44,942 bases of DNA, taken from a bacterium (lineage in GTDB: Bacteria > Patescibacteriota > Minisyncoccia > Phycocordibacterales > CAIRYW01). Numbering within the stretch: position 1 is the first letter of the stretch; the number at the start of each line of letters is the position of its first letter. A program made the translations under genes and the position numbers. The DNA lies in the NCBI GenBank assembly GCA_031373235.1, contig JANMMK010000048.1, positions 1 to 44,942 on the forward strand, in the 5' to 3' direction. Shown piece after piece: positions 36,758 to 44,942 of the stretch. A model generated the notes under the pieces. That model ran no database searches. It worked only from the letters and a program-made list of their open reading frames with translations, and had not been told where the DNA came from.

Positions 36758-36944
36758 GTTTTTTATATAAAGAATTTTTGTATAGGAAAAACAAATATAG
36801 AATAATTTTTAAATATATGAAAAGAGGCCATTAGTTTTTTTATAAACAACCACCTCAAAATAGCATTTGCTTTAAAATACGGCTCTATATATAATTGAAT
36901 TAAAGAGATAGGTCGGATTATTTATTAGTCTTAAGAATTTTTTT

Positions 36945-37217
36945 ATGAACAAACAAGCAATCGCAGAAGCAGTACAAGTTGTACTCGGAGGAACAAAGGT
37001 TCAAGCAGAACAAGTAGTAGATAGTGTACTCGAAGCAATCATCGGGTCACTAAAGAAAGGAAACGAAGTTTCAATCGCGGGTCTTGGTATCTTCTCTGTA
37101 AAGACAAGAGCGGCAAGAACAGCAAGAAACCCACGAACAGGAGAACCTATCAAAGTAGCAGCAATGAAGGTTCCAAAGTTTCGAGCAGCAAAGGCTCTCA
37201 AAGACGCTGTAAAATAA
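36945..37217 (+). CDS. hup: HU family DNA-binding protein
   Basis: 90 aa. GLGIFSVKTRAARTARNPRTGEPI arm motif. Confidence 0.93.
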   Translation: MNKQAIAEAVQVVLGGTKVQAEQVVDSVLEAIIGSLKKGNEVSIAGLGIFSVKTRAARTARNPRTGEPIKVAAMKVPKFRAAKALKDAVK

Positions 37218-37243
37218 TATTTTACAAACTCTTGTTACTTATC

Positions 37244-37271
37244 AAAAACCTCCTTGTAAAAGGAGGTTTTT
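37244..37271 (+). terminator. intrinsic terminator after hup
   Basis: 12-bp stem AAAAACCTCCTT/AAGGAGGTTTTT with a GTAA loop. Confidence 0.8.
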
Positions 37272-37285
37272 GATTTATATAACTA

Positions 37286-37318
37286 CAAAAAACCTCGCAT
37301 TATGTGCGAGGTGTTTTT
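37286..37318. terminator. second, bidirectional hairpin terminator
   Basis: ACCTCGCA-TTATG-TGCGAGGT flanked by an A run and a T run. Confidence 0.6.
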
Positions 37319-37565
37319 AGGCTCTTTCTCTTACTTCCTTTAGGAGGTCTCTCAGCGCAGCACTTTGCTCTGGACTCAAATCACCCACTCCAAACAAAGC
37401 CTCCTCTGGTGGAACCTCTGGAATTTCTTCTGGTGTATTTTGTTGTGGTTCAGATTCGAAGTTCATAGTATCTAAAATTTAAGTGGATAAATATTCTAGC
37501 ATAAAGAAAGAAGGGAGTAAAAAGAAATTTTTATAATTTATGAAGTTTTTAATATTTTAAGAATG

Positions 37566-37693
37566 TGTGGGTAGAGAGAATCGGTCACAACTCTTTTGCT
37601 TTGCAAAAGGTCGCGACCCCGCCTCGCACCCGGCTAAGCGCCCGACTACGCTTCGCTCCGTGTGCTCCGGCTTTCGATTCTCTCTACCTCGCA
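37566..37693. repeat. structured element bounded by inverted copies of the tRNA-Gly(UCC) 3' end (possible ncRNA or miniature mobile element)
   Basis: Left arm TGTGGGTAGAGAGAATCG matches 37741-37758 at 17/18 positions. Right arm TTCGATTCTCTCTACC(T)CGCA is the reverse-complement copy. A 14-bp perfect closing stem is possible. The interior is GC-rich with the hairpin CTTTTGC-TTT-GCAAAAG. Confidence 0.6.
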
Positions 37694-37701
37694 TCGACAA
37701 T

Positions 37702-37733
37702 AAAAAAACACCACACTAAGTGTGGTGGTTTTT
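37702..37733. terminator. bidirectional terminator between the element and tRNA-Gly(UCC)
   Basis: A7, CACCACAC-TAA-GTGTGGTG, then G and T5. Confidence 0.75.
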
Positions 37734-37740
37734 AGTCGAG

Positions 37741-37811
37741 TGCGGGTAGAGAGAATCGAACTCTCGTCTTCACATTGGAAGTGTGACATTCTACCACTAA
37801 ACCATACCCGC
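37741..37811 (-). tRNA. tRNA-Gly (anticodon UCC)
   Basis: Manual fold of GCGGGTA-TG-GTTT-AGTGGTA-GAAT-G-TCACA-CTTCCAA-TGTGA-AGAC-GAGAG-TTCGATT-CTCTC-TACCCGC-A. 71 nt; CCA not encoded. Confidence 0.9.
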
Positions 37812-37870
37812 ATTCATTCGGAAGATACTATAGCAAAAAGTAACAAAACTAGCAAAAATAAAACCACTCA

Positions 37871-37900
37871 TTACTAACCCAAAAAGTCATCTGTTATAAT
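37871..37900 (+). promoter_or_regulatory. promoter with extended -10 (TGTTATAAT) placed for a leaderless mRNA of the S1 peptidase gene
   Basis: TTACTA-N18-TATAAT. The -10 ends 7 nt before the ATG at 37908. Confidence 0.45.
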
Positions 37901-37907
37901 ACACATC

Positions 37908-39011
37908 ATGCAAAGCGAAGTCGGCACACAACTCATCGGACTCTGGATCGGATTCATGTCGTTTCTTGGATGGACACCGGAATCCAATCCGATACTTTTT
38001 CCAAAAGATATTCCCGTAGAATTTATAGAAATTAAAAAAGAAGTAACTAAGGAAATAGAAGAAAAACAAAAAAAAGTTCCTGAAATTAAAACAACAAAAA
38101 GTAAATCTACCTCAGATGAAAAAACAGAAACTAAAAAAGTAACAGAGGAAGTAGTAAAAGAAAAAATACAAACACCTCATGTCCCAAGTATCGAAGATGT
38201 AGTGATAAATATTTACTGTACCTTCAGAAGAGGAAACAAAACACAAACCGTCTCAGGAAGTGCAGTTCGACTTCAGGAAGGAGTGTACCTCACCAACGCA
38301 CATGTTGCAGAATATATTATGCTTGAAAATTATTTTTTAAAAAAAGAATCCTCTAATACTCTCGTAGAGAAATCTTCCTGCACTCTTCGTGAACTCTCTC
38401 CTGCAGTTGGAAGTGCCTCCGCAGAAATTATTTTTCTCCCTACCTCATGGGTACGTCAAAACAAAACAAACCTAAAACAAGCAACTCCTGTTGGAACAGG
38501 AGAATACGATTATGCTCTAATCAGAGAAATAAAAAATAATAAAAACACACTACAAACAAAAGTATCGCTCCCACTGGCAAAAGATGATACAAAAAAAGAT
38601 CAAGAAGTTTTCTTGATTGGATATCCTATTTTTGATCAAGCGAGTATAAAAAATAATCTTCGAAAGGTCAGTGAAAAAGTGTCCATTGAAAAGTTGTTTA
38701 GTTTTGGAGGAAAAAAAGTAGATACATTTAATACAGACAAAACAACACTCGCACACATTGGAAGTTCAGGAGGTGCTGTCATCACTACCGAAGGAGAACT
38801 CCTTGGTATCATGGTAGCAACGATTTCAAATAGTAACTCTGGATCAAAAGCAATAAAAGCGATCAACCTTGATTATATAAAAAGAAATATTACGGAAGAG
38901 AGTGGAAAGGGTCTCGAAGTGTTTCTAAACGACACTGATAGAGAAGTTGTGTCCTTTAAAGAAAACTACCTCGAATCACTTTCAGAAACTCTCCTTGAAG
39001 GAGTGAAGTAA
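37908..39011 (+). CDS. membrane-anchored trypsin-like (S1) serine peptidase
   Basis: His context VYLTNAHVAEY, Asp context EYDYALIRE and Ser context HIGSSGGAVIT. N-terminal hydrophobic segment and a Lys-rich linker. Confidence 0.7.
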   Translation: MQSEVGTQLIGLWIGFMSFLGWTPESNPILFPKDIPVEFIEIKKEVTKEIEEKQKKVPEIKTTKSKSTSDEKTETKKVTEEVVKEKIQTPHVPSIEDVVINIYCTFRRGNKTQTVSGSAVRLQEGVYLTNAHVAEYIMLENYFLKKESSNTLVEKSSCTLRELSPAVGSASAEIIFLPTSWVRQNKTNLKQATPVGTGEYDYALIREIKNNKNTLQTKVSLPLAKDDTKKDQEVFLIGYPIFDQASIKNNLRKVSEKVSIEKLFSFGGKKVDTFNTDKTTLAHIGSSGGAVITTEGELLGIMVATISNSNSGSKAIKAINLDYIKRNITEESGKGLEVFLNDTDREVVSFKENYLESLSETLLEGVK

Positions 39012-39030
39012 AAACCTTTATATCTAAAGA

Positions 39031-39342
39031 CTATTTTTGGTCATTCAGATGTTTCACCAAAGCAAGTACTACTTCGAAGTCATCAGTTGGTGAAACCTTG
39101 TTTGGTTTTTCGTATCGACAAAGCACACAGCGGTGTAGCACTGTGTAACCTTTTTTAGTTTTTTCTATAGAGACTGGCTCCATCATGCCACCACAAACAC
39201 TCGCTCTGTCTCCCGGAAAGATATCAACATGTTTACTCCACAAACACTTCGGACAGTGGTTGGTAAAACCATCTCCAGAAACATGAAAACTGCATCGCTC
39301 ACAAATAAAATCTTCAACTGTTTTTTGAAATTGTTTGGACAT
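39031..39342 (-). CDS. RNHCP domain protein (zinc ribbon)
   Basis: FICERCSFHVSGDGFTNHCPKCLWSKHVDIFPGDRASVCGGMMEP matches the RNHCP signature. Confidence 0.8.
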   Translation of the reverse strand: MSKQFQKTVEDFICERCSFHVSGDGFTNHCPKCLWSKHVDIFPGDRASVCGGMMEPVSIEKTKKGYTVLHRCVLCRYEKPNKVSPTDDFEVVLALVKHLNDQK

Positions 39343-39408
39343 AATTTTATCTTAGCATAAAAAAATCTCGCCCTAGGTTTCCCCAAGGCGAGAGTGAAGA
39401 CAAGCAGT

Positions 39409-40782
39409 TTACTTTTTTTCGCGACGACGTTCAGCCTCTTCGGTCTGTCTCTGTGCTGGCAGACAACGCCCCAAGTGCCAATGGAACCATGGGCATTTCT
39501 CTCCCGAACACCAACCGGGTGTTCCTCCTTTTTTCCACCCACACTTTTCGTAAAACACGGGATGAAATTTACCGCCAAGAATTAACCTGACGATCTCAAC
39601 AATTACCTCAAGAGGAATCGCCGTCGGTGCAACACCTTCAGCAGACTCGCTCCCGTTGTAAAGCTGGTTCGCAGCATTACGAGAGACATTATGGAGGAAC
39701 CAGTAGGGACTGAGAAGTGGCCATCCTTCCACGTGACCACGAACAGAGAGTTCCTCCGGACTGAAGTTTTTTTCGTCCGTGAAGATTTCCCCTCGGTCCC
39801 ACATCAAGCGGAGCTCCTCGTCCCGAAGGGCGAGAATTACGGTGGTCAGATCGATTGACTTACGACGGTCCATGAAGATCACCACATTGCCATTCGAATC
39901 CATCTTTATGACAACAGCAGCGCCAAGGTCAATCGCAACTTTCACAGCTTCCACCGTATCAGTCTTGATAACGACCATATGAAGATGCTCCGTCTTTCCA
40001 GGACCGCGCGCAACCTCTATCGTGCTCCAGAACTTCGCCCTCGTGCCAAGCTGTCGATCAGCAGACAAAGTATCAAACATCCGCCGACTTCTTGCTCCAC
40101 GATTTTTCTCTGAGCGTAACGCGAGAGTTATCCAGTCTTTGGCCTTTAGCTCTCCGAAGACATTCTTGATCATGTGGTAAGCATTTTTGAGAGTCATGGG
40201 CGGATTCTTTTCAAGCAGACTTCCATCCGCTTTAAGTGACAAATACTGCGCCTCGTAAGCAACAGTAAGCCACTCAAGAATTTCAGTCTCCCTGGGCCGA
40301 GTGTCTTTCGACATCCGGTGAATACCCTTAAGCACCGCGTGGAGCGACTTCTTGTGATCGGCTCCGAGCCGATCTTCTCTGATCACCGTTCCGATCATTT
40401 TCCTGAGAACAGGATCTCCGCCGAGTCCAACAATCTGTGCAAACATTTCTGCCGCACAAGTCTTACGATACTCCTCGTCCGCCAGACCATGTTCATCAGC
40501 TCTTCCCGACCGACATCCAAACGAAAGCGCACTAGCCGTGTCACTTGCTGGAATCGACTGGCCAAGTGACCAGTAGATCACCTCCGCCTTGTCAATTCCA
40601 GGAAACACCTTCTGCACTGAATCCCGAAAGATTTGACTCCTCGAGATCCAGAAGCAGACTGCTTCGTCTGTGTGAAACTTCCTGTGAAGGAAGACTGTGC
40701 CGACCGGGAGCACAAAGCCCTGTTTTGTCATGAGGTCCCCGAGGTTTGTGGCTAAGGGAGTGATTTTGCGTGGTGTTTTCAT
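39409..40782 (-). CDS. GC-rich MYG1/UPF0160-like protein (divergent paralog of 41032-42078) with Cys/Trp/His-rich C-terminal tail
   Basis: Motifs HRKFHTDEAV, FGCRSGRADEH and SPYWFLHNVS...YNGS are collinear with the neighbouring paralog. The track start at 40899 is TTG in an AT-rich stretch; G+C rises near ATG 40780-40782, and another candidate ATG is at 40729-40731. The start is therefore uncertain. Confidence 0.62.
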   Translation of the reverse strand: MKTPRKITPLATNLGDLMTKQGFVLPVGTVFLHRKFHTDEAVCFWISRSQIFRDSVQKVFPGIDKAEVIYWSLGQSIPASDTASALSFGCRSGRADEHGLADEEYRKTCAAEMFAQIVGLGGDPVLRKMIGTVIREDRLGADHKKSLHAVLKGIHRMSKDTRPRETEILEWLTVAYEAQYLSLKADGSLLEKNPPMTLKNAYHMIKNVFGELKAKDWITLALRSEKNRGARSRRMFDTLSADRQLGTRAKFWSTIEVARGPGKTEHLHMVVIKTDTVEAVKVAIDLGAAVVIKMDSNGNVVIFMDRRKSIDLTTVILALRDEELRLMWDRGEIFTDEKNFSPEELSVRGHVEGWPLLSPYWFLHNVSRNAANQLYNGSESAEGVAPTAIPLEVIVEIVRLILGGKFHPVFYEKCGWKKGGTPGWCSGEKCPWFHWHLGRCLPAQRQTEEAERRREKK

Positions 40783-40875
40783 TTTCAGTAATGCTTCGTA
40801 AAATAGAAGCTCTTGGTTTTTCTGTATTTGTTTTTGTTGTACATTCCGTAAAATAGGAACGTCCACCGCTAGGTT

Positions 40876-40932
40876 TTGCCGGTAGATTTTTTTATTCAAT
40901 TTTTTAAATTAAACAGAAAAATCTACCGGCAA
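40876..40932 (-). promoter_or_regulatory. 16-bp perfect inverted repeat (25-nt loop) in the 5' region of the GC-rich paralog
   Basis: TTGCCGGTAGATTTTT (40876-40891) pairs with AAAAATCTACCGGCAA (40917-40932). It encloses the TTG at 40899. Confidence 0.55.
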
Positions 40933-40966
40933 TATTGCTTGTCTTTTCAAAGAACTTTGTACGCTA

Positions 40967-40995
40967 ATATTATCACAAATATTGACAAAAGTCAA
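40967..40995 (-). promoter_or_regulatory. sigma70-type promoter for the GC-rich paralog, with the -35 inside palindrome ATTGAC-AAAA-GTCAAT
   Basis: TTGACT-N17-TAATAT on the - strand. The palindrome is at 40981-40996. Confidence 0.55.
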
Positions 40996-41031
40996 TACAT
41001 CTACTTTGATTTTTAACCTTATTTTCTAAGC

Positions 41032-42078
41032 TTATTTCAAACTCTCCTTAATGAGTTCCACCACTTTGTCGTGAGGTATTTTTGTTGGCTCGATACCGAT
41101 AGTCGTCAGACTTCCGTTAAAGCCCATTGCTCTTGTATGAAAAAGATACCAATAAGGAATTCCTTCCGTAAATCCTTCTTTAGAAAGAAGTGCCTCGTCA
41201 GTTATTTTTACTCCTCCTCGATAATGTTGTTCTGCCATTCGAAGTAGCACAAATGCTTTCGTAAGATTGACTCCCCTTTTTGTATCCGTCATTAAAATTA
41301 CATTTCCTTTTTTTGAAAACTGCACCACCACGTGTGCACCAATAGACCTCACATACTTATTCATCTCCTCGTTGTCAGATTCGATCACTCCAAGAACTAA
41401 CTGCTTCGCGTCATGAGCAATAAATTTTTCAACCCTTCCCTTCTCCGCAAACTCTTGCTTCGCTCGGATGAATTCATCTTGTTTTCCTTGCAATGCTTTC
41501 TCGGCAAACTCTCTCCATCCTTCGGCATCTTTCCCTTGCTCTTTTAGTAACAAAAAAATATTTTCAAGAGTTGGTCTCGCCCAAAAGTTTTTGTCAGTTT
41601 GATGTTTCGTTTCTTTCTCAACTTCTGCCATATAAGAAGTCTCTGTAAAATTATAGATTCCTTCTACATCATCTTTGTAGTGTTGATGTAAGATTTTTAT
41701 AATCATTGGAATTTCATTTTTTACTTTTGAACCATGAAGGTCTTCCTCCTTAATGAAATGTAAAACTTTTTGCAGTCCTGGATTTTTTTCTAGGCCGAGT
41801 TTTTTGGCAACCAAAGTAACGCAGGTCTCCCCTTCTACTCGTTCTTTCTTGCTTGTGGCATGTTCATCAAACTCCCCTCCTCCACACCCAAGAAAAACAG
41901 TGTCCGGAAAATCTTTAGCTGTTTTTCCATCTGGTAATTCTCCCGTGGTCATAAAAGAAATACTAGCAGTCGAAACACCAGGAAAAACTTTTTCTCCTTC
42001 AGGAAATTTTTTAAGTAACATGATGGACACCAGCTCATCAGCATGTGGTCTAAAGTGTGTAATTATTTTTGTTATCAT
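41032..42078 (-). CDS. MYG1/UPF0160-like metal-dependent hydrolase (DHH-related)
   Basis: From memory of the family signature, THFRPHADELVSIMLL, LGCGGGEFDEH and GIPYWYLFHTRAMGFNGS resemble MYG1 motifs (FHxDE, GG.YD..H, GIPG..FVH..GFIGG). The track start at 42105 is TTG; ATG at 42076-42078 lies 7 nt after the MTase stop. Confidence 0.6.
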   Translation of the reverse strand: MITKIITHFRPHADELVSIMLLKKFPEGEKVFPGVSTASISFMTTGELPDGKTAKDFPDTVFLGCGGGEFDEHATSKKERVEGETCVTLVAKKLGLEKNPGLQKVLHFIKEEDLHGSKVKNEIPMIIKILHQHYKDDVEGIYNFTETSYMAEVEKETKHQTDKNFWARPTLENIFLLLKEQGKDAEGWREFAEKALQGKQDEFIRAKQEFAEKGRVEKFIAHDAKQLVLGVIESDNEEMNKYVRSIGAHVVVQFSKKGNVILMTDTKRGVNLTKAFVLLRMAEQHYRGGVKITDEALLSKEGFTEGIPYWYLFHTRAMGFNGSLTTIGIEPTKIPHDKVVELIKESLK

Positions 42079-42085
42079 AAAAATA

Positions 42086-42850
42086 TTATAACTTCTTACA
42101 CTCAATCATCATAAAAAGAGGTATCTCTTTTCGTGCTTGGTCTTCAGCGACTTGTCGTGGGCCTTTCTGGCTTTCTCTATGAGAAATCCATTCTTCTAAA
42201 CGAGTAACAACTAGTCCCTGTTTTGAAAGTAGTTTTACAAAATACTGCAGTGGACGATGAAAGCTCACTGTCTTGTCGCTCTTATCTTTCCCTGGATGCA
42301 TTTCTATAGGCACAGTTTTTTCAGACATGTAAGAGTAGACCTTTCTGTATTGTTTTTTAGTACTCTCATCAAAACCCCAATCCGCTTCTTTTGGTATTCT
42401 GAAACTCGGATGATTTATCACAAAAACAAATTTTCCTCCCACTTTAAGTACTCGAGTCACTTCCCCAAATGTCTTATCTATATTTTTTATGTTCTGCAAT
42501 GCCAGAATGCAATATGCAATATCAAAAAAAGAATTATCAAAAGGAAAACTTTCATCTGCTAAAGCGACCTTAAACGTTTCGTTGCTTCCCTTCTCTCTTT
42601 CTGCAATTGAAACAAGTTCAGAAGAAATATCAAAACCAGAAACCGACTTGGCTCGCTTTGCAAATACATGTGCAAACAAACCTTGTCCACAGGCAATATC
42701 TAAAACACTATCTTTAGATGAGACACCTAAAACTCTCTCGAGGTTTGGCAAAATAACTTTTTGTTGATATGAATCAGGACTAAGCACAAGCTCGTCATAC
42801 CATCCTGCTACATTTCCCCACGAAGTATCTTTTTTTGAGTTCCCTTTCAT
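42086..42850 (-). CDS. class I SAM-dependent methyltransferase
   Basis: Motif I VLDIACGQGLF and motif post-I VSGFDIS. The track start at 42877 is TTG; ATG at 42848-42850. Confidence 0.85.
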   Translation of the reverse strand: MKGNSKKDTSWGNVAGWYDELVLSPDSYQQKVILPNLERVLGVSSKDSVLDIACGQGLFAHVFAKRAKSVSGFDISSELVSIAEREKGSNETFKVALADESFPFDNSFFDIAYCILALQNIKNIDKTFGEVTRVLKVGGKFVFVINHPSFRIPKEADWGFDESTKKQYRKVYSYMSEKTVPIEMHPGKDKSDKTVSFHRPLQYFVKLLSKQGLVVTRLEEWISHRESQKGPRQVAEDQARKEIPLFMMIECKKL

Positions 42851-42922
42851 AGCAACTATCTTACGAGAAATTTTCAATTACCACAAACTTATGTTACACT
42901 CTCTCTCAGTTTCAAGAAAAAT

Positions 42923-42994
42923 CGGAGTATGGTGTAACGGCTAGCATACTCGCTTTGGGAGCGAGCAGTCTGGGTTCGAATCCCAGTACTCCGA
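42923..42994 (+). tRNA. tRNA-Pro (anticodon UGG)
   Basis: Manual fold: acceptor CGGAGTA/TACTCCG, anticodon arm CTCGC-TTTGGGA-GCGAG, T arm CTGGG-TTCGAAT-CCCAG, discriminator A. CCA not encoded. Confidence 0.9.
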
Positions 42995-43029
42995 CAATAG
43001 AGTAAGAAAAGTGTATAAACACCTTTCGG

Positions 43030-43134
43030 CTGGGATTCGAAATCCTTTTGAGCATAATTTATGAGGTATCCCGAGATAAATTATCCAAAAGGCCTACTGG
43101 TCATGTAATGACCGAAAATCCCAGTACTCCGACA
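43030..43134. repeat. structured element bounded by an inverted and a direct copy of the tRNA-Pro 3' end
   Basis: 43030-43041 CTGGGATTCGAA is the exact reverse complement of 42975-42986. 43117-43134 is an exact 18-nt direct repeat of 42979-42996. Nested perfect stems lie between them. Confidence 0.6.
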
Positions 43135-43145
43135 TGAACAGAAAG

Positions 43146-43174
43146 AAAAAACACTCCTCCATGGAGTGTTTTTT
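43146..43174. terminator. bidirectional terminator (tRNA-Pro unit / yraN)
   Basis: A run, AACACTCC-TCCAT-GGAGTGTT, then a T run. Confidence 0.75.
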
Positions 43175-43175
43175 C

Positions 43176-43562
43176 TTATCCAGGTAAGAGTTGATTCTCA
43201 AGAAACTTTACAATAGACTTTTTTCTTTCGATGTCTATGTAAAGCAAAACAACATCAAACTGCCAGTTTTCTATTTTATGTTTAGAAATATAGATAGATA
43301 TAACCTTGGATAGCTTCGAAAGCTTATCTTTTGTAATATTTTCAGAAGGGTCAATCTCCTTTGTCTCATGTAAAACATCACCTACTATTTCACGTGAAAC
43401 AGACTTAACCTCTATAAAGTGTAAAAAACCTTGTTTTTGAGCAATAATATCTATTTCACCCCATTTTGTATAGTAATTCCTATGAATAACACTAAAATTA
43501 TGTTTCTTAAGAAACAATTCTGCTATATCTTCGCCTAATTTGCCAACTTTACCTAAATTCAT
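43176..43562 (-). CDS. yraN: YraN family (UPF0102) endonuclease-like protein
   Basis: GKLGEDIAELFLKKHNFSVIHRNYYTKWGEIDIIAQKQGFLHFIEVKS is the typical YraN core. Confidence 0.82.
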   Translation of the reverse strand: MNLGKVGKLGEDIAELFLKKHNFSVIHRNYYTKWGEIDIIAQKQGFLHFIEVKSVSREIVGDVLHETKEIDPSENITKDKLSKLSKVISIYISKHKIENWQFDVVLLYIDIERKKSIVKFLENQLLPG

Positions 43563-43591
43563 AAATAAAGGATATAAATAGCTAACAAGCC

Positions 43592-44032
43592 TTATTTTAT
43601 AAGGGTTTTTATAAAAGACATAACACTTTTGTCCTTTATAATATCATTAACGTACGGATCTAAATTCAACTTTAAGGCTTCCTTAAAGGTAAGCCACCTA
43701 TATTCTGAATGTTCTGCACTCAAAGAAACATTCTCTTTTGTTACACGTGAAATGTAAGTCACTCTAACTACATGTTTGTCAGACCAACCGAAAATATCCT
43801 GGACTCCAATTAAACCTAGTAATTTGAAAGATTTTAAACCTGTCTCTTCTTTTATCTCTCTTTTTAGTGCTTCTTCGAGTGTTTCACGTGAATCAATTCT
43901 TCCTCCTGGTAAATCCCATAAATTAGCTGACTTACCGATAGAAATAGAACTTCTTTTCAATAATAGGAACTTTCTAGACTTATTTAACAGAAAAGACTTA
44001 ACACCGACTTGTAAAATGAGTTTTTGTTTCAT
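43592..44032 (-). CDS. NUDIX hydrolase
   Basis: Nudix box GGRIDSRETLEEALKREIKEETGL. Confidence 0.88.
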   Translation of the reverse strand: MKQKLILQVGVKSFLLNKSRKFLLLKRSSISIGKSANLWDLPGGRIDSRETLEEALKREIKEETGLKSFKLLGLIGVQDIFGWSDKHVVRVTYISRVTKENVSLSAEHSEYRWLTFKEALKLNLDPYVNDIIKDKSVMSFIKTLIK

Positions 44033-44272
44033 GATTAACGTTAATTACGTTTCTTATGAAACATAATTGGGTTATTTTGCTTAAAAAACATAAATAATAG
44101 ACATATTATAAAATTTAAGACATCTTAAATCAATACTTTTATCCTGTCTTTTACACATATCAACATAGTTATCCACAGTTTTGCCTTATTTTATAAGGAA
44201 AAACTGGAAGGTGGGGTTTACAAAAAGGACAAAAGACATTATGGGAGTGAAAAGTCTTTCTTATTTATATAA

Positions 44273-44433
44273 CTAGAGAGAATCGCCCTCGAAACTTATT
44301 ATGTCGTCACATAATAAGTTTCTGCCCCACAAGAGGACTTCTATTTTTATAAATAAAAATAAGTCGGGCACCGGTTTCTGCTTCGCTTGTTGCTACAAGC
44401 TCAAGTGCAGAAACCGTTCGATTCTCTCTGGCC
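44273..44433. repeat. structured element bounded by inverted copies of the tRNA-Gly(GCC) 3' end
   Basis: Left arm CTAGAGAGAATCG matches 44492-44504 at 12/13 positions. Right arm GTTCGATTCTCTCTGGCC (44416-44433) is the exact reverse-complement copy of the tRNA 3' part. The interior holds four hairpins, including perfect 13-bp and 10-bp stems. Confidence 0.6.
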
Positions 44434-44439
44434 TGCTAC

Positions 44440-44485
44440 AAAAATATAATAAGCTGAATGCTTTCGCATCCAGCTTATTATTTTT
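44440..44485. terminator. bidirectional terminator between the element and tRNA-Gly(GCC)
   Basis: ATAATAAGCTG...CAGCTTATTAT (11 bp, plus an inner ATGC/GCAT) flanked by an A run and a T run. Confidence 0.75.
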
Positions 44486-44486
44486 G

Positions 44487-44557
44487 TGCGGCCAGAGAGA
44501 ATCGAACTCTCATCTAATCCTTGGCAAGGACTCATTTTACCACTAAACTATGGCCGC
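44487..44557 (-). tRNA. tRNA-Gly (anticodon GCC)
   Basis: Manual fold of GCGGCCA-TA-GTTT-AGTGGTA-AAAT-G-AGTCC-TTGCCAA-GGATT-AGAT-GAGAG-TTCGATT-CTCTC-TGGCCGC-A. 71 nt. Confidence 0.9.
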
Positions 44558-44569
44558 TTAATTTAAGTA

Positions 44570-44597
44570 ATTATACAGAAAAATGAGGGATCGACAA
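44570..44597 (-). promoter_or_regulatory. candidate promoter of tRNA-Gly(GCC)
   Basis: TTGTCG-N16-TATAAT on the - strand, about 12 nt upstream of the mature 5' end. Confidence 0.5.
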
Positions 44598-44747
44598 ATT
44601 TGGTGTCTTAAGGATTAGTACCCACACCTCAAGGCGTTGTAAGGGTATTTTAGCATAGTTGAGTGTGTCTCATTGATGTCTCAGGGTCACTATGCTGTTT
44701 ATTGAGATATAAGGGTTATTGGAGAAAATGAGACAGAATAAGACACT

Positions 44748-44942
44748 TTAAGGCTTACTACTTTTTCGTCTCACTTTTCGAGGATTCTTCTTGCGAGCCT
44801 CCCTTCGAGCTCGTTTCTCCTCCCATTTACGATCTTCCTCCGCCTTACGCTCCGCCATCTCCTCAGGCGGTACTAGACGCATATAGTTCATAATCTTGTA
44901 TCCTTTGAGGTGTTCAAATGGATCTACGAACTTGTACCACGG
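44748..44942 (-). CDS. C-terminal fragment of an unidentified protein (5' end outside the window)
   Basis: Open frame to the window edge: ...PWYKFVDPFEHLKGYKIMNYMRLVPPEEMAERKAEEDRKWEEKRARREARKKNPRKVRRKSSKP*. No family recognised. Confidence 0.4.
   Translation of the reverse strand, partial: PWYKFVDPFEHLKGYKIMNYMRLVPPEEMAERKAEEDRKWEEKRARREARKKNPRKVRRKSSKP

Follow-up and report, generated by a model that had tools for sequence, protein, structure and literature searches.

Small cassettes with conserved interiors and host-copied arms at tRNA 3' ends in Paceibacteria-type Patescibacteria

The tRNA-Pro(UGG) gene of the window (the whole 44,942-nt stretch of DNA analysed here, part of the chromosome of a Paceibacteria-type member of the Patescibacteria, or CPR) is followed by copies of its own 3' end, one inverted and one direct, with nested hairpins between them. 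What is such a unit, and how did it come to match the gene in front of it? A phage origin for the region 36900–44942 was considered and rejected, since it has no megablast match in the phage collection and the window is CPR chromosome. The tRNA-Pro flank is one copy of a small (∼100–200 nt) cassette family that is common in Paceibacteria-type Patescibacteria; its parts and those of its relatives in the window are given in Table 1, where X is the direct and X' the inverted copy of the host gene's 3' end.

Table 1. Positions of the cassettes and their parts in the window
Feature	Position	Strand	Basis or detail
Host gene tRNA-Pro(UGG)	42923–42995	+	ARAGORN; Rfam RF00005, 61.9 bits
X source copy (T loop, T-stem 3' strand, acceptor 3' strand, discriminator, 2 nt)	42975–42996	+	Origin of both repeats (repeat search)
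Spacer between tRNA-Pro X and X'	42997–43029	+	Sequence; fold
X' at tRNA-Pro (exact reverse complement of T loop and T-stem 3' strand)	43030–43041	+	Repeat search
Module A at tRNA-Pro	43039–43114	+	Covariance model R1; covariation, 111 sequences
Downstream X (exact direct copy of tRNA-Pro 3' end)	43117–43134	+	Repeat search
Terminator-like perfect hairpin after tRNA-Pro cassette	43143–43177	.	15-nt arms 43143–43157/43163–43177, 100% complementary
Cassette at tRNA-Gly(UCC)	37565–37693	-	X' 37673–37688; module B; X 37565–37583
Cassette at tRNA-Gly(GCC)	44275–44438	-	X' 44416–44433; X 44275–44285

A preliminary description of this DNA had reported a 12-nt inverted copy of the T arm, an 18-nt direct copy of the tRNA 3' end and three inner stems, and all are present where it placed them, exact and non-random. 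In the repeat search both the inverted pair (12 nt, 42975–42986 and 43030–43041) and the direct pair (18 nt, 42979–42996 and 43117–43134) are exact; the 18-mer occurs twice in the window against 0.00 occurrences expected, even with two mismatches allowed, and the 12-mer twice against 0.26 expected. The 120 nt between the direct repeats contain no ORF. The minimum free energy fold of the element (−40.8 kcal/mol, z = −3.8) includes all of the named stems: P2 (CCTTTTG/CAAAAGG, 43044–43050 with 43086–43092), P3 (ATAATTTAT/ATAAATTAT, 43054–43062 with 43076–43084), P4 (GGTCAT/ATGACC, 43099–43104 with 43108–43113, loop GTA) and the closing helix P1 (CTGGGATT/AATCCCAG), in which X' (43030–43037) pairs with the downstream X (43117–43124). 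The bulged A43051 and the pair G43052–C43085 lie between P2 and P3, and the junction CCTACT (43093–43098) joins P2 to P4. When the whole precursor is folded thermodynamically, X' pairs with the tRNA's own 3' end and not with the downstream X, a prediction that counts against the explanation preferred below.

The spacer holds GAGTA (43000–43004), which is identical to part of the acceptor 5' strand and pairs with the ACTC of the downstream X, and a weak small hairpin (43007–43026) in the place that a conserved hairpin, S, occupies in the family. This weak hairpin and the terminator beyond the element had both been pointed out before, and both are there. The terminator-like hairpin is flanked by A and T runs and is the only one of its kind between tRNA-Pro and the convergent YraN-like gene (an exact-protein look-up of this neighbour gave no record); it stands directly after the cassette, with none between tRNA-Pro and the cassette. 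Co-transcription of the element with tRNA-Pro would fit this anatomy and is possible.

The interior of the cassette, module A, exists in at least 115 copies in CPR genomes and metagenomes. Covariance model R1 finds a single match in the window, the module at tRNA-Pro (73.1 bits, E = 5e-13). Across 111 sequences 93.0% of the cells in its helices are paired (68.2% in shuffles, 33–54% in slid controls), and 577 cells carry double changes compared with 189 in shuffles; the columns of the closing helix P1 covary as well in a 13-sequence alignment. Inner stems and closing stem covary across loci, which bears out the earlier proposal that CTGGGATT/AATCCCAG closes a three-stem structure. Module A is a real conserved single-strand fold. 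It is laid out as a three-way junction in which the P2–P3 helix has a bulged A and the P4 hairpin a UGUAA loop, and its unpaired bases (TTGAG, CCAA, TACTG and GTAA) are strongly conserved, a conservation partly imposed by the search pattern. G.U pairs are found on the tRNA-sense strand only, 27 of them at one position, and A.C is not tolerated, so the structure is strand-specific. G.T pairs are tolerated in DNA hairpins too, and module A and its counterpart module B (below) are putative RNA folds, with folded single-stranded DNA as the alternative.

Neither module could be assigned to a known RNA family, since Rfam 15 has no match at the cassettes: only the three tRNAs of the window pass its gathering thresholds, nothing relevant appears at E ≤ 10 over 43000–43140, 37565–37693 or the interior of 44275–44438, and six other module A loci give no match at E ≤ 1. 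Sub-threshold matches to microRNA precursors at 44408–44511 reflect the long palindrome formed there by tRNA 3' end, terminator and X'. Full-text searches of the literature found no description of the cassette family, which is apparently undescribed.

The cassette does not bring its closing helix P1 with it; the helix is built from the 3' end of the host, with the inverted X' on its 5' side and the direct X on its 3' side. At each of 74 loci the arms match the local host and differ between hosts, and only the interior is common. Across the family the hosts comprise about 20 different tRNAs and the stop-codon regions of rplK and lepA. X' is identical to the T loop and T-stem 3' strand of its own tRNA at 11 or more of 12 positions at 43 of the 74 loci, and a separate piece of it copies the acceptor 3' strand and trailer; hairpin S interrupts X' between these acceptor and T-stem parts. 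Locally aligned arm segments contain 9 mismatches in 709 positions (local alignment favours perfect stretches). A comparison of G.T with A.C mismatches in the arms, 26 against 16, gave too few to tell RNA from DNA. X' ends at the complement of T54. The start of X varies over T-loop positions 53–58, its end lies anywhere from inside the T stem to beyond the trailer, into which it often extends, and the P4 3' strand and junction consist of T-loop nucleotides. The presence of trailer sequence in the arms indicates that they were copied from DNA or a primary transcript and not from mature tRNA.

These arms exclude several simpler origins. The 12-mer had also been considered as a direct T-arm copy with an indel, but at other loci the inverted arm also holds the reverse complement of the acceptor 3' strand and trailer; the inverted reading, exact over 12 nt here, is the right one and generalises to the other loci. 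Nor is the element a tandem tRNA pseudogene: it has no ARAGORN or Rfam match, its 5' arm reads as T loop, T-stem 3' strand, acceptor 3' strand and trailer in reverse complement and not as a copy of the 5' strands, and opposite T69 X' has an A, whereas the 5' strand of the tRNA itself has G there. A retroelement primer-binding site does not fit either, because the inverted arm runs on into the complement of the genomic trailer and is without TGG where the gene is without CCA (loci L011 and L010).

The same frame is found at two other tRNA genes of the window, as the preliminary description had recognised, and generalises to related DNA. It consists of a 16-nt inverted and a 15-nt direct copy at tRNA-Gly(UCC) and of an 18-nt inverted and an 11-nt direct copy at tRNA-Gly(GCC). 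Both of these loci carry a second family, module B, the latter in a GGTGCC variant with three hairpins in its interior that was assigned by eye. In module B, 17 of 29 pairs show compensatory change, and one G.U pair is present in 13 of 15 sequences; both modules fold around a three-way or four-way junction whose bases are conserved. At both tRNA-Gly genes, and at most loci elsewhere, tRNA and X' are separated by a terminator-like palindrome, so co-transcription there would need read-through.

The cassettes are tied to the 3' sides of their hosts. In related DNA 73 of 226 tRNAs have a direct copy of at least 13 nt of their own 3' tail 46–465 nt downstream, and three have one upstream; similarly, 75 of 142 pattern matches lie at most 400 nt downstream of a same-strand tRNA and two near an opposite-strand tRNA. 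The fold is always on the sense strand of the host gene, and orientation follows the upstream gene. The X-loop-X'-module-X frame is also found, in sense orientation, at the stop codons of rplK and lepA, and at least two diverged lineages have module A behind rplK. The rplK position raised the idea that module A mimics the L1 stalk or L1-binding site, a similarity which we take to be unconvincing; rplA is not downstream at three rplK loci. The conserved unpaired bases and the recurrence at rplK hint at a host function or an enzyme-recognition function beyond a purely selfish one.

The loci also differ between close relatives. The preliminary description had looked to orthologous tRNA-Pro loci and to the interior for a decision, and the two point in different directions: the element is missing at 12 of 13 relatives and in a 98.7% identical strain (L188), whereas the interior is strongly conserved and covaries at more than 100 other loci. 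Orthologous loci hold different modules or none. In L188 the tRNA-Pro gene itself is 100% identical and its site is empty, the tRNA-Gly(UCC) locus has one extra 137-nt [module+X] unit between the X repeats, and the tRNA-Gly(GCC) cassette is identical; the empty tRNA-Pro site and the extra tRNA-Gly(UCC) unit show that cassettes are dispensable and dynamic. The trailer of the filled tRNA-Pro gene is partly homologous to that of the empty site, where a homologue of the terminator hairpin immediately follows the trailer. This difference at tRNA-Pro falls together with the import of a ∼1.1-kb tract (92% identity) whose start is the tRNA 3' end. Elsewhere an exact tandem duplication (L184) and tandem arrays (L005, L010 and L042) are present. 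None of the loci shows a de novo insertion whose flanks are identical on both sides, and a search for empty/filled pairs among the contigs examined gave one near-identical pair only, both members of which are filled.

How did the arms and the modules come together? The explanation we prefer, which stands about evenly between right and wrong in our judgement, is that the cassettes are selfish, non-autonomous structured RNA units that are co-transcribed with the host gene, acquire their arms by templated DNA copying and turn over at their repeats. At tRNA-Pro the cassette would be transcribed as a 3' extension of pre-tRNA-Pro ending at the hairpin 43143–43177, and selection on RNA structure would maintain the module. 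The nearly mismatch-free arms would arise at the DNA level through templated copying, probably through fold-back or a template switch whose breakpoints fall in the palindromic TTCGAA of the T loop; the outcome would be a direct-inverted-direct triplication of the gene's 3' end. Modules could then shift between loci, or be lost or amplified, through recombination or copy-choice at the X and T-loop repeats, which would make the cassettes behave as selfish non-autonomous elements; they should be harmless, as the host 3' end stays intact. Hairpins can be created when replication switches templates (PMC8794818), and a switch at short inverted repeats gives rise to inverted triplications (ODIRA, DUP-TRP/INV-DUP; PMC11790251). 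The products described in these two studies resemble the cassettes in their direct-inverted-direct arrangement of a short segment, their breakpoints at short palindromes and their perfect arms without wobble pairs; the cassette breakpoints would lie at the terminator hairpin and the T-loop TTCGAA. However, template switching alone brings in no foreign sequence, while the cassettes have a conserved module and hairpin S at the junctions and recur at hundreds of loci, and it does not explain either the conserved hairpin S or the non-tRNA hosts without TTCGAA.

Other readings put the weight on function or on a recombinase. The cassettes could be functional tRNA-like small RNAs whose ends mimic the acceptor/T minihelix of the neighbouring tRNA (in the order acceptor-5'-like piece, hairpin S, T-stem-5'-like piece ... 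T-stem 3' strand, acceptor 3' strand, discriminator), so that RNase P, RNase Z and the CCA-adding enzyme could release and finish them, with modules A and B carrying the function (as a protein-binding RNA, sponge or ribozyme, for instance). Hairpin S divides X' precisely between its acceptor and T-stem parts, the point from which a real tRNA extends its D and anticodon arms, and often has a 7-nt anticodon-like loop (YU-GGG-RN); the discriminator is part of X, as is CCA where it is gene-encoded (L049 and L058), and the strand-specific structural selection and the recurrence of module A behind rplK would suit such an RNA. This is nevertheless rather unlikely: the acceptor part of the downstream X is decayed or absent at about half of the loci (X stops before the tRNA 3' end at 36 of 75), the 5' acceptor-like piece of the tRNA-Pro copy is GAGTA only, the units are patchy at orthologous loci and strain-variable, and arms that track each host tRNA perfectly point to copying and not to convergent mimicry. 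Plant mitochondrial t-elements, mascRNA and 3'ETS-derived sRNAs compare with this reading in that they are RNAs attached to or downstream in a transcript that mimic an acceptor/T arm or mature from a tRNA 3' trailer, but their sequences are their own, not taken over exactly, inverted and direct, from the tRNA next to them, and they enclose no conserved modules shared by many loci. We consider it quite improbable that the cassettes are folded single-stranded DNA recombination sites or miniature elements (of the integron attC, CTX-phage attP(+) or IS200/IS605-derived type), in which an X':X stem mimics a duplex target and a strand-specific recombinase or HUH enzyme inserts and excises the unit. 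The strand-specific hairpins covary, the arms are nearly perfect Watson-Crick helices, and the X repeats are sites of tandem arrays and of indels one unit in size. An integrated CTX prophage has at its right end the order target, short segment, inverted copy, ∼90 nt, direct copy, which the order in the cassettes resembles. Integron attC and CTX attP(+) are also strand-specific imperfect hairpins (∼60–140 nt) whose stem mimics a duplex site and whose structure is conserved above sequence. But they need a dedicated or Xer recombinase and conserved core boxes, and their arms are not copied from a variable neighbour gene; the host-specific cassette arms contain no R/L-type boxes, and the unpaired junction sequences of the cassettes are strongly conserved, as in RNA motifs. 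No recombinase or transposase adjoins the cassettes in the loci read, the sole one found belonging to an unrelated 8-kb island. About 20 different arm sequences are beyond the recognition of one enzyme, and the re-derivation of arms at each host is left unexplained; orientation is always that of the upstream gene, and GC skew makes the strand that folds in the tRNA-Pro copy the template of the leading strand, which is the unfavourable case. TTAC/TCAA sites of the IS608 type on the other strand were judged coincidental.

A direct repeat of a tRNA 3' end, here 18 nt and exact, is the hallmark of tRNA-targeting integrases, real islands occur at tRNA 3' ends in these organisms (L185), and L188 has an integrase gene ∼5 kb past the window, all of which could suggest that the units are attL/attR scars of classical integrase elements, comparable to cis-mobilisable remnants left when an island is deleted from a tRNA 3' end. 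That account is largely refuted, and we give it very little credence: the unit is 100–200 nt without a trace of island genes, an inverted copy is unexpected, the interiors are conserved folds with compensatory change of a kind absent from double-stranded att sites, the repeat ends differ by locus and are not set by a fixed crossover, and ORF 3' ends are among the hosts. Genomic islands, prophages, tycheposons and casposons share with the cassettes a site at tRNA 3' ends that leaves the tRNA intact, a flanking direct repeat of its 3' part and tandem stacking; the target duplicated by casposons, 14–15 bp long, is the 3' end of a tRNA or translation-factor gene. These elements are kilobases long with their own integrase and att sites or terminal repeats, and have no inverted target copy or covarying hairpins, whereas the cassettes are 100–200 nt with no gene, variable repeat ends and an inverted target copy always present. 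A search for an autonomous partner through direct repeats of tRNA tails up to 9 kb apart found only paralogous tRNAs and the 8-kb island just mentioned, a serine-recombinase element at a tRNA 3' end (L185), and no cognate transposase or RAYT was seen in the window or in L188, as far as the contig fragments extend. Improbable too, though less so than such scars, is a small hairpin-shaped replicon or ribozyme-based mobile RNA, in which X-L-X'-module closes as a 140–250-nt dumbbell or rod-like circle, rolling-circle multimers have the genomic tandems as their image in DNA, and modules A and B act as cleavage/ligation ribozymes in or next to the T loop. Unit-length tandem repeats (L184 and L042), an X' able to pair with either flanking X, T-loop nucleotides in P4 and its junction, as in a substrate strand, and the conserved junction bases of both modules are consistent with it; against it are the absence of any known ribozyme core in Rfam (E ≤ 10 at the window cassettes, E ≤ 1 at six other loci), the fact that no reverse transcriptase was seen, and the trailer sequence, which makes DNA or a primary transcript the source. 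Self-cleaving ribozymes (hammerhead, twister, hatchet, pistol and HDV-like) have no Rfam match at the window cassettes at E ≤ 10, and by eye the junctions GAAR / NUACU / CGA do not fit the hammerhead core CUGANGA...GAAA...UH; a k-turn in the apex of P3, also looked for by eye, is a possibility at most. A broader version, to which we attach only a small probability, casts modules A and B as RNAs, catalytic or guide-like, of a new kind of mobile element for which the 3' end of a host RNA or gene is both template and docking site; the P4 5' strand together with X' would bind the T-loop/T-stem/acceptor strand as substrate, X-L-X'-module would be a hairpin-shaped or circular intermediate of 140–250 nt, and the genomic copies would be its integrated, sometimes multimeric, images.

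The cassettes also resemble REP/REPIN, ERIC, Correia and other MITE-like structured repeats, which are short, abundant, hairpin-forming, intergenic, non-autonomous, strain-variable and often co-transcribed at gene 3' ends. The inverted repeats of those elements are their own and the same in every copy, whereas in the cassettes the interior is conserved and the arms are re-made for each host. It is the combination that appears to be new, a conserved interior with arms copied from the target both inverted and direct, and no described repeat, mobile element or RNA family was found to have it.

If the catalytic or guide-RNA reading were true, the cassettes would be to bacteria what viroid-like or retrozyme-type agents are elsewhere, or would represent a new target-templated insertion mechanism. 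If the cassette family is what it appears to be, the modules would more generally give structural and functional studies new RNA folds to work on, some of which may bind proteins or be catalytic, and the cassettes would be candidates for a new route of insertion or duplication at tRNA 3' ends in tiny genomes with single-copy tRNAs. Annotation of CPR genomes would be affected, in that partial tRNA copies, spurious "att sites", element-made terminators, strain indels and recombination breakpoints at tRNA genes would have to be reinterpreted. Patescibacteria would then hold at least two unknown kinds of structured RNA-type module, in hundreds of copies, with closing helices rebuilt from the gene in front of them.

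The tRNA-Pro(UGG) gene of the window is followed by a cassette whose repeats are exact, as the preliminary description had claimed: X', a 12-nt inverted copy of the T arm, and a second X, an 18-nt direct copy of the tRNA 3' end. The chance expectation from shuffles is 0.26 for the former and 0.00 for the latter. The three inner stems (P2, P3 and P4, module A) and the closing stem P1 (X' with X) are as described and constitute the minimum-energy fold (-40.8 kcal/mol, z = -3.8). The architecture said to be common to both tRNA-Gly genes is indeed an identical frame; at tRNA-Gly(UCC) and tRNA-Gly(GCC) the inverted copies are 16 and 18 nt, the direct copies 15 and 11 nt, and the folds have z = -6.7 and -9.3, respectively. 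The inverted reading of the 12-mer also holds: across loci X' is a true complement of the 3' strand, and there it includes the trailer complement.

Features of the window and of related contigs (handles beginning with L)
Feature	Sequence	Coordinates	Strand	Remark
tRNA-Pro(UGG)	window	42923-42995	+	host gene
Inverted T-arm copy	window	43030-43041		of 42975-42986
Direct copy of tRNA 3' end	window	43117-43134		of 42979-42996
Module A	window	43039-43114
Perfect 15-bp hairpin, A and T runs at sides	window	43143-43177		downstream of cassette
tRNA-Gly(UCC) cassette	window	37565-37693	-
tRNA-Gly(GCC) cassette	window	44275-44438	-
DnaA box (TTATCCACA)	window	44169-44177	+	sole perfect box in window
Gene for 357-aa protein	window	41032-42105	-
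Methyltransferase gene	window	42086-42877
Strong hairpin	window	40866-40942		5' end of ORF 39409-40899 and intergenic space downstream of ORF 41032-42105
YraN-like/NUDIX block	window	43117-44180
YraN-like/NUDIX block	L188	5883-7386
tRNA-Arg(TCG) with module-B cassette	L188	5696-5872
8-kb island	L185	4060-12110
Partial tRNA-Ala(CGC) copies with module A	L068	12631-13038	-
tRNA-Ser(GCT) with module-A cassette	L063	10676-10912	-
Module B with P3 apex of module A	L116	356-492
Module B with P3 apex of module A	L115	6665-6786
Module B with P3 apex of module A	L174	10-130
rplK-linked module A	L071
rplK-linked module A	L118
rplK-linked module A	L171
rplK-linked module A	L084
rplK-linked module A	L143

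The same arrangement is widespread among relatives. When 102 tRNAs in 62 related genome loci were screened up to 450 nt downstream for an exact copy (at least 10 nt) of their own 3' tail, about one-third had one, inverted, direct or both, and upstream controls reached at most ~10 nt. The hosts include tRNAs for Arg, Gly, Pro, Cys, Tyr, Leu, His, Lys, Asp, Ile and Ala. Of the 226 tRNAs in the full set of related DNA, 73 are followed, at a distance of 46-465 nt (mostly 107-190 nt), by a direct tail copy of at least 13 nt; only three have one upstream, all explained by paralogous tRNAs. On the tRNA-sense strand the order is X, L, X', conserved module and second X, where the first X comprises the T loop and the T-stem and acceptor 3' strands of the tRNA itself, and L is the trailer plus a terminator-like palindrome. 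X' comprises the reverse complements of the trailer, the acceptor and T-stem 3' strands and the T loop, usually split at the acceptor/T-stem junction by a small hairpin, S (loop YU-GGG-RN or TGACTAAATGTCA), and the second X frequently extends into the trailer. Because X' carries the trailer complement and has A opposite T69, whereas the tRNA's own 5' strand has G there, both a tandem tRNA pseudogene and mature tRNA as template or primer are ruled out. A third conserved unit, module C (CCAGATGTnnGGGnnACATCTGTGGCCCGnAGGGATT), lies 3' of tRNA-Pro in four relatives (L005, L009, L010 and L011); in L009 the whole T arm and the acceptor 3' strand recur after it as a direct copy of 26 nt. L068 shows the mirror image of the usual arrangement: the intact tRNA-Ala(CGC) is preceded by two incomplete copies of its 5' part (acceptor 5' strand, D arm and anticodon arm), and each copy is joined to a module A.

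A loose pattern derived from six copies of module A found 14 copies in CPR genome loci, matched five contigs (one real) in a viral collection and at least 120 contigs in metagenomes; at least 115 copies from all sources pass simple stem checks. One contig filed as viral, L063 (IMG/VR UViG, 28 kb), has another tRNA after its canonical cassette, and represents a CPR phage or else a CPR contig placed in the wrong collection. Among 111 aligned sequences, 93.0% of P2-P3-P4 cells are paired (68.2% in column shuffles, and 33-54% in slid controls, all much lower), with 577 double-change cells versus 189 in the shuffles. The invariant TTGAG, CCAA, TACTG and GTAA are partly forced by the search pattern; the covarying stems are not. 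P1 covaries as well (13-sequence alignment including the arms). One P2 position is G.U in 27 sequences, and since such pairs would read A.C on the opposite strand, the fold is assigned to the tRNA-sense strand. The covariance model derived from the aligned copies finds the copy in the window (73.1 bits, E = 5e-13; the sole one there) and 19 more in ten Paceibacteria-type relative loci, with none in L188, the contig of a nearly identical strain, or in the remaining loci searched. A second family, module B, includes the tRNA-Gly(UCC) interior. It has 35 nhmmer hits, nearly all directly 3' of tRNAs and co-oriented, with compensatory changes in 17 of 29 pairs and one G.U pair kept in 13 of 15 sequences; judged by eye, its GGTGCC variant forms the interior at tRNA-Gly(GCC). 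In some module-B copies the second hairpin has the P3 apex of module A (UUUUAUGAG...CGAAAUAAAA), so the two families have a sub-module in common. Rfam 15 has no match for either module.

The arms, on the other hand, are specific to each host. At 74 tRNA-linked module-A loci, the 12 nt preceding the module match the reverse complement of the locus's own T loop and T-stem 3' strand at 11 or more positions in 43 cases and at 9-10 in 23 more. Within aligned arm segments, mismatches number 9 of 709 positions in the T part and 1 of 384 in the acceptor part, an agreement biased upward by local alignment. The start of the second X varies within the T loop, from 24 to 18 nt before the annotated tRNA 3' end; the copy reaches that end or beyond, often into the trailer, in 39 of 75 loci; in the others its acceptor part has decayed. 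Wobble-paired conserved interiors inside host-specific, nearly perfect arms point to a module under RNA-type selection with arms made by templated, DNA-type copying.

Comparison with close relatives reveals turnover. L188, an NCBI MAG contig, is 98.7-98.9% identical to the window over 12 kb, and its tRNA-Pro locus has an identical tRNA, a 15-nt trailer and a terminator without the cassette, which is thus dispensable within the species. Identity falls to ~92% from the tRNA-Pro 3' end to ~44180 and is 98.7-99% on both sides; the divergent YraN-like/NUDIX block resembles a recombination tract with its left boundary at the tRNA-Pro 3' end, and the cassette appears to have been gained or lost with it; the difference is not a captured transposition. 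At tRNA-Gly(UCC), between identical flanks, L188 has one additional 137-nt unit between the X repeats (a module-B-like interior plus 14 nt of X); at tRNA-Gly(GCC) the strains do not differ. Upstream of the latter, L188 has a tRNA-Arg(TCG) with a canonical module-B cassette that is absent from the window, where an unrelated ORF end occupies the position. L184 has an exact tandem duplication of a unit, and L005, L010, L042 and L043 have arrays of two or three. Orthologous tRNAs in 13 relatives differ in what follows them: module A, module B, the two together, a different module or none. The preliminary description had seen its case as lost if orthologous tRNA-Pro loci lacked the element and its interior was neither conserved nor covarying: in this comparison module A is indeed at tRNA-Pro in the window alone, but the interior is conserved and covaries elsewhere. 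In L185 an island with genes for a large serine recombinase, an AAA_21/AAA_15 ATPase and a terminase small subunit lies between tRNA-Val and a displaced X'-module A-X.

The window is CPR chromosome and not phage; it encodes NusA, RNase Y, ClpP, HU, PGK, RecJ, ComEC and type IV pilus proteins, and the only relatives of its lineage-specific proteins are in Patescibacteria MAGs with labels such as Taylorbacteria and Paceibacterota. The DnaA box, conserved with a second GTGGATA 3' of tRNA-Gly(GCC) among relatives, and the monotonic, negative GC skew of the + strand suggest that oriC lies just right of ~44.2 kb. Relative to the adjoining genes, tRNA-Pro has the opposite orientation to that in most relatives (L001-L013). 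The methyltransferase gene separates it from the 357-aa gene here and in some relatives (e.g. L002 and L009) and is absent from L001, L004, L012 and L013, where the two directly adjoin. The 357-aa gene is syntenic with tRNA-Pro in all close relatives; a Pfam search with its product gave no hit, and its invariant HxRPHADE and GGGxFDEH motifs resemble, we presume, those of the MYG1/UPF0160 phosphoesterase family. The hairpin near its downstream end gives sub-threshold matches to several microRNA-precursor models on both strands.

Not all hosts are tRNAs. Among the matches listed, 75 of 142 raw module-A matches have a same-strand tRNA no more than 400 nt upstream, and two lie near an opposite-strand one; most others are contig edges, tRNAs missed by ARAGORN or fortuitous matches inside coding regions. 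Five contigs, from at least two diverged lineages, have module A directly 3' of the rplK stop codon (three with no rplA downstream, which may be L1-less Parcubacteria), and one has it directly 3' of the lepA stop codon. In L118 and L181, X is the last ~10 nt of the ORF including the stop codon, followed by a short loop, X', the module and a second X. Cassettes at ORFs are always oriented as the upstream gene. Mimicry of a tRNA is thus not essential; what all hosts have in common is that the cassette sits at the 3' end of an expressed gene.

The demonstrated anatomy, strand-specific conserved folds, local arms, sense orientation and turnover at X repeats can be drawn into one picture, which we consider an even bet. 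The tRNA-Pro cassette would be part of the pre-tRNA-Pro transcript, since the only terminator at the locus lies after it, and the modules would be kept as RNA structure. The arms might derive from fold-back or template-switch copying of the host 3' end, a rather doubtful step suggested by the direct-inverted-direct layout, a known signature of template-switch events (PMC8794818, PMC11790251); the X-L-X' palindrome is centred on a hairpin, X' ends at the complement of T54 within the palindromic TTCGAA, and the second X resumes in the T loop, often repeating the trailer. Recombination or copy-choice at T-loop and X repeats could then spread modules between loci, and lose or amplify units, with the host gene always intact. 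Against this picture, terminator-like palindromes lie 5' of X' at most loci, T-loop microhomology explains neither hairpin S nor the non-tRNA hosts, and in the predicted fold of the whole precursor X' pairs preferentially with the 3' part of the tRNA itself, while the downstream X pairs with the tRNA's 5' acceptor and T-stem strands; the result resembles a tRNA whose T loop has a 140-nt insertion.

The foremost rival, albeit an unlikely one, is a functional tRNA-like small RNA that tRNA enzymes would process. Less probable still is a folded site in single-stranded DNA, of the attC, CTX or IS200-derived type. We give yet less credence to a hairpin-shaped or circular replicon or a ribozyme-based mobile RNA, and very little to scars of classical integrative elements.

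Several systems resemble the cassettes in part: tRNA-targeting islands and casposons also have a direct repeat of the tRNA 3' end, REP and MITE repeats are likewise short structured intergenic units, attC and CTX sites have strand-specific hairpins too, t-elements and tRNA-trailer RNAs mimic or derive from tRNAs, and template-switch products have an inverted middle copy. No description of modules A and B was found in the open full-text literature, and each of the closest systems known there has just one trait in common with the cassettes. None of these systems joins a conserved, covarying interior to arms that are rebuilt from the host in each case.
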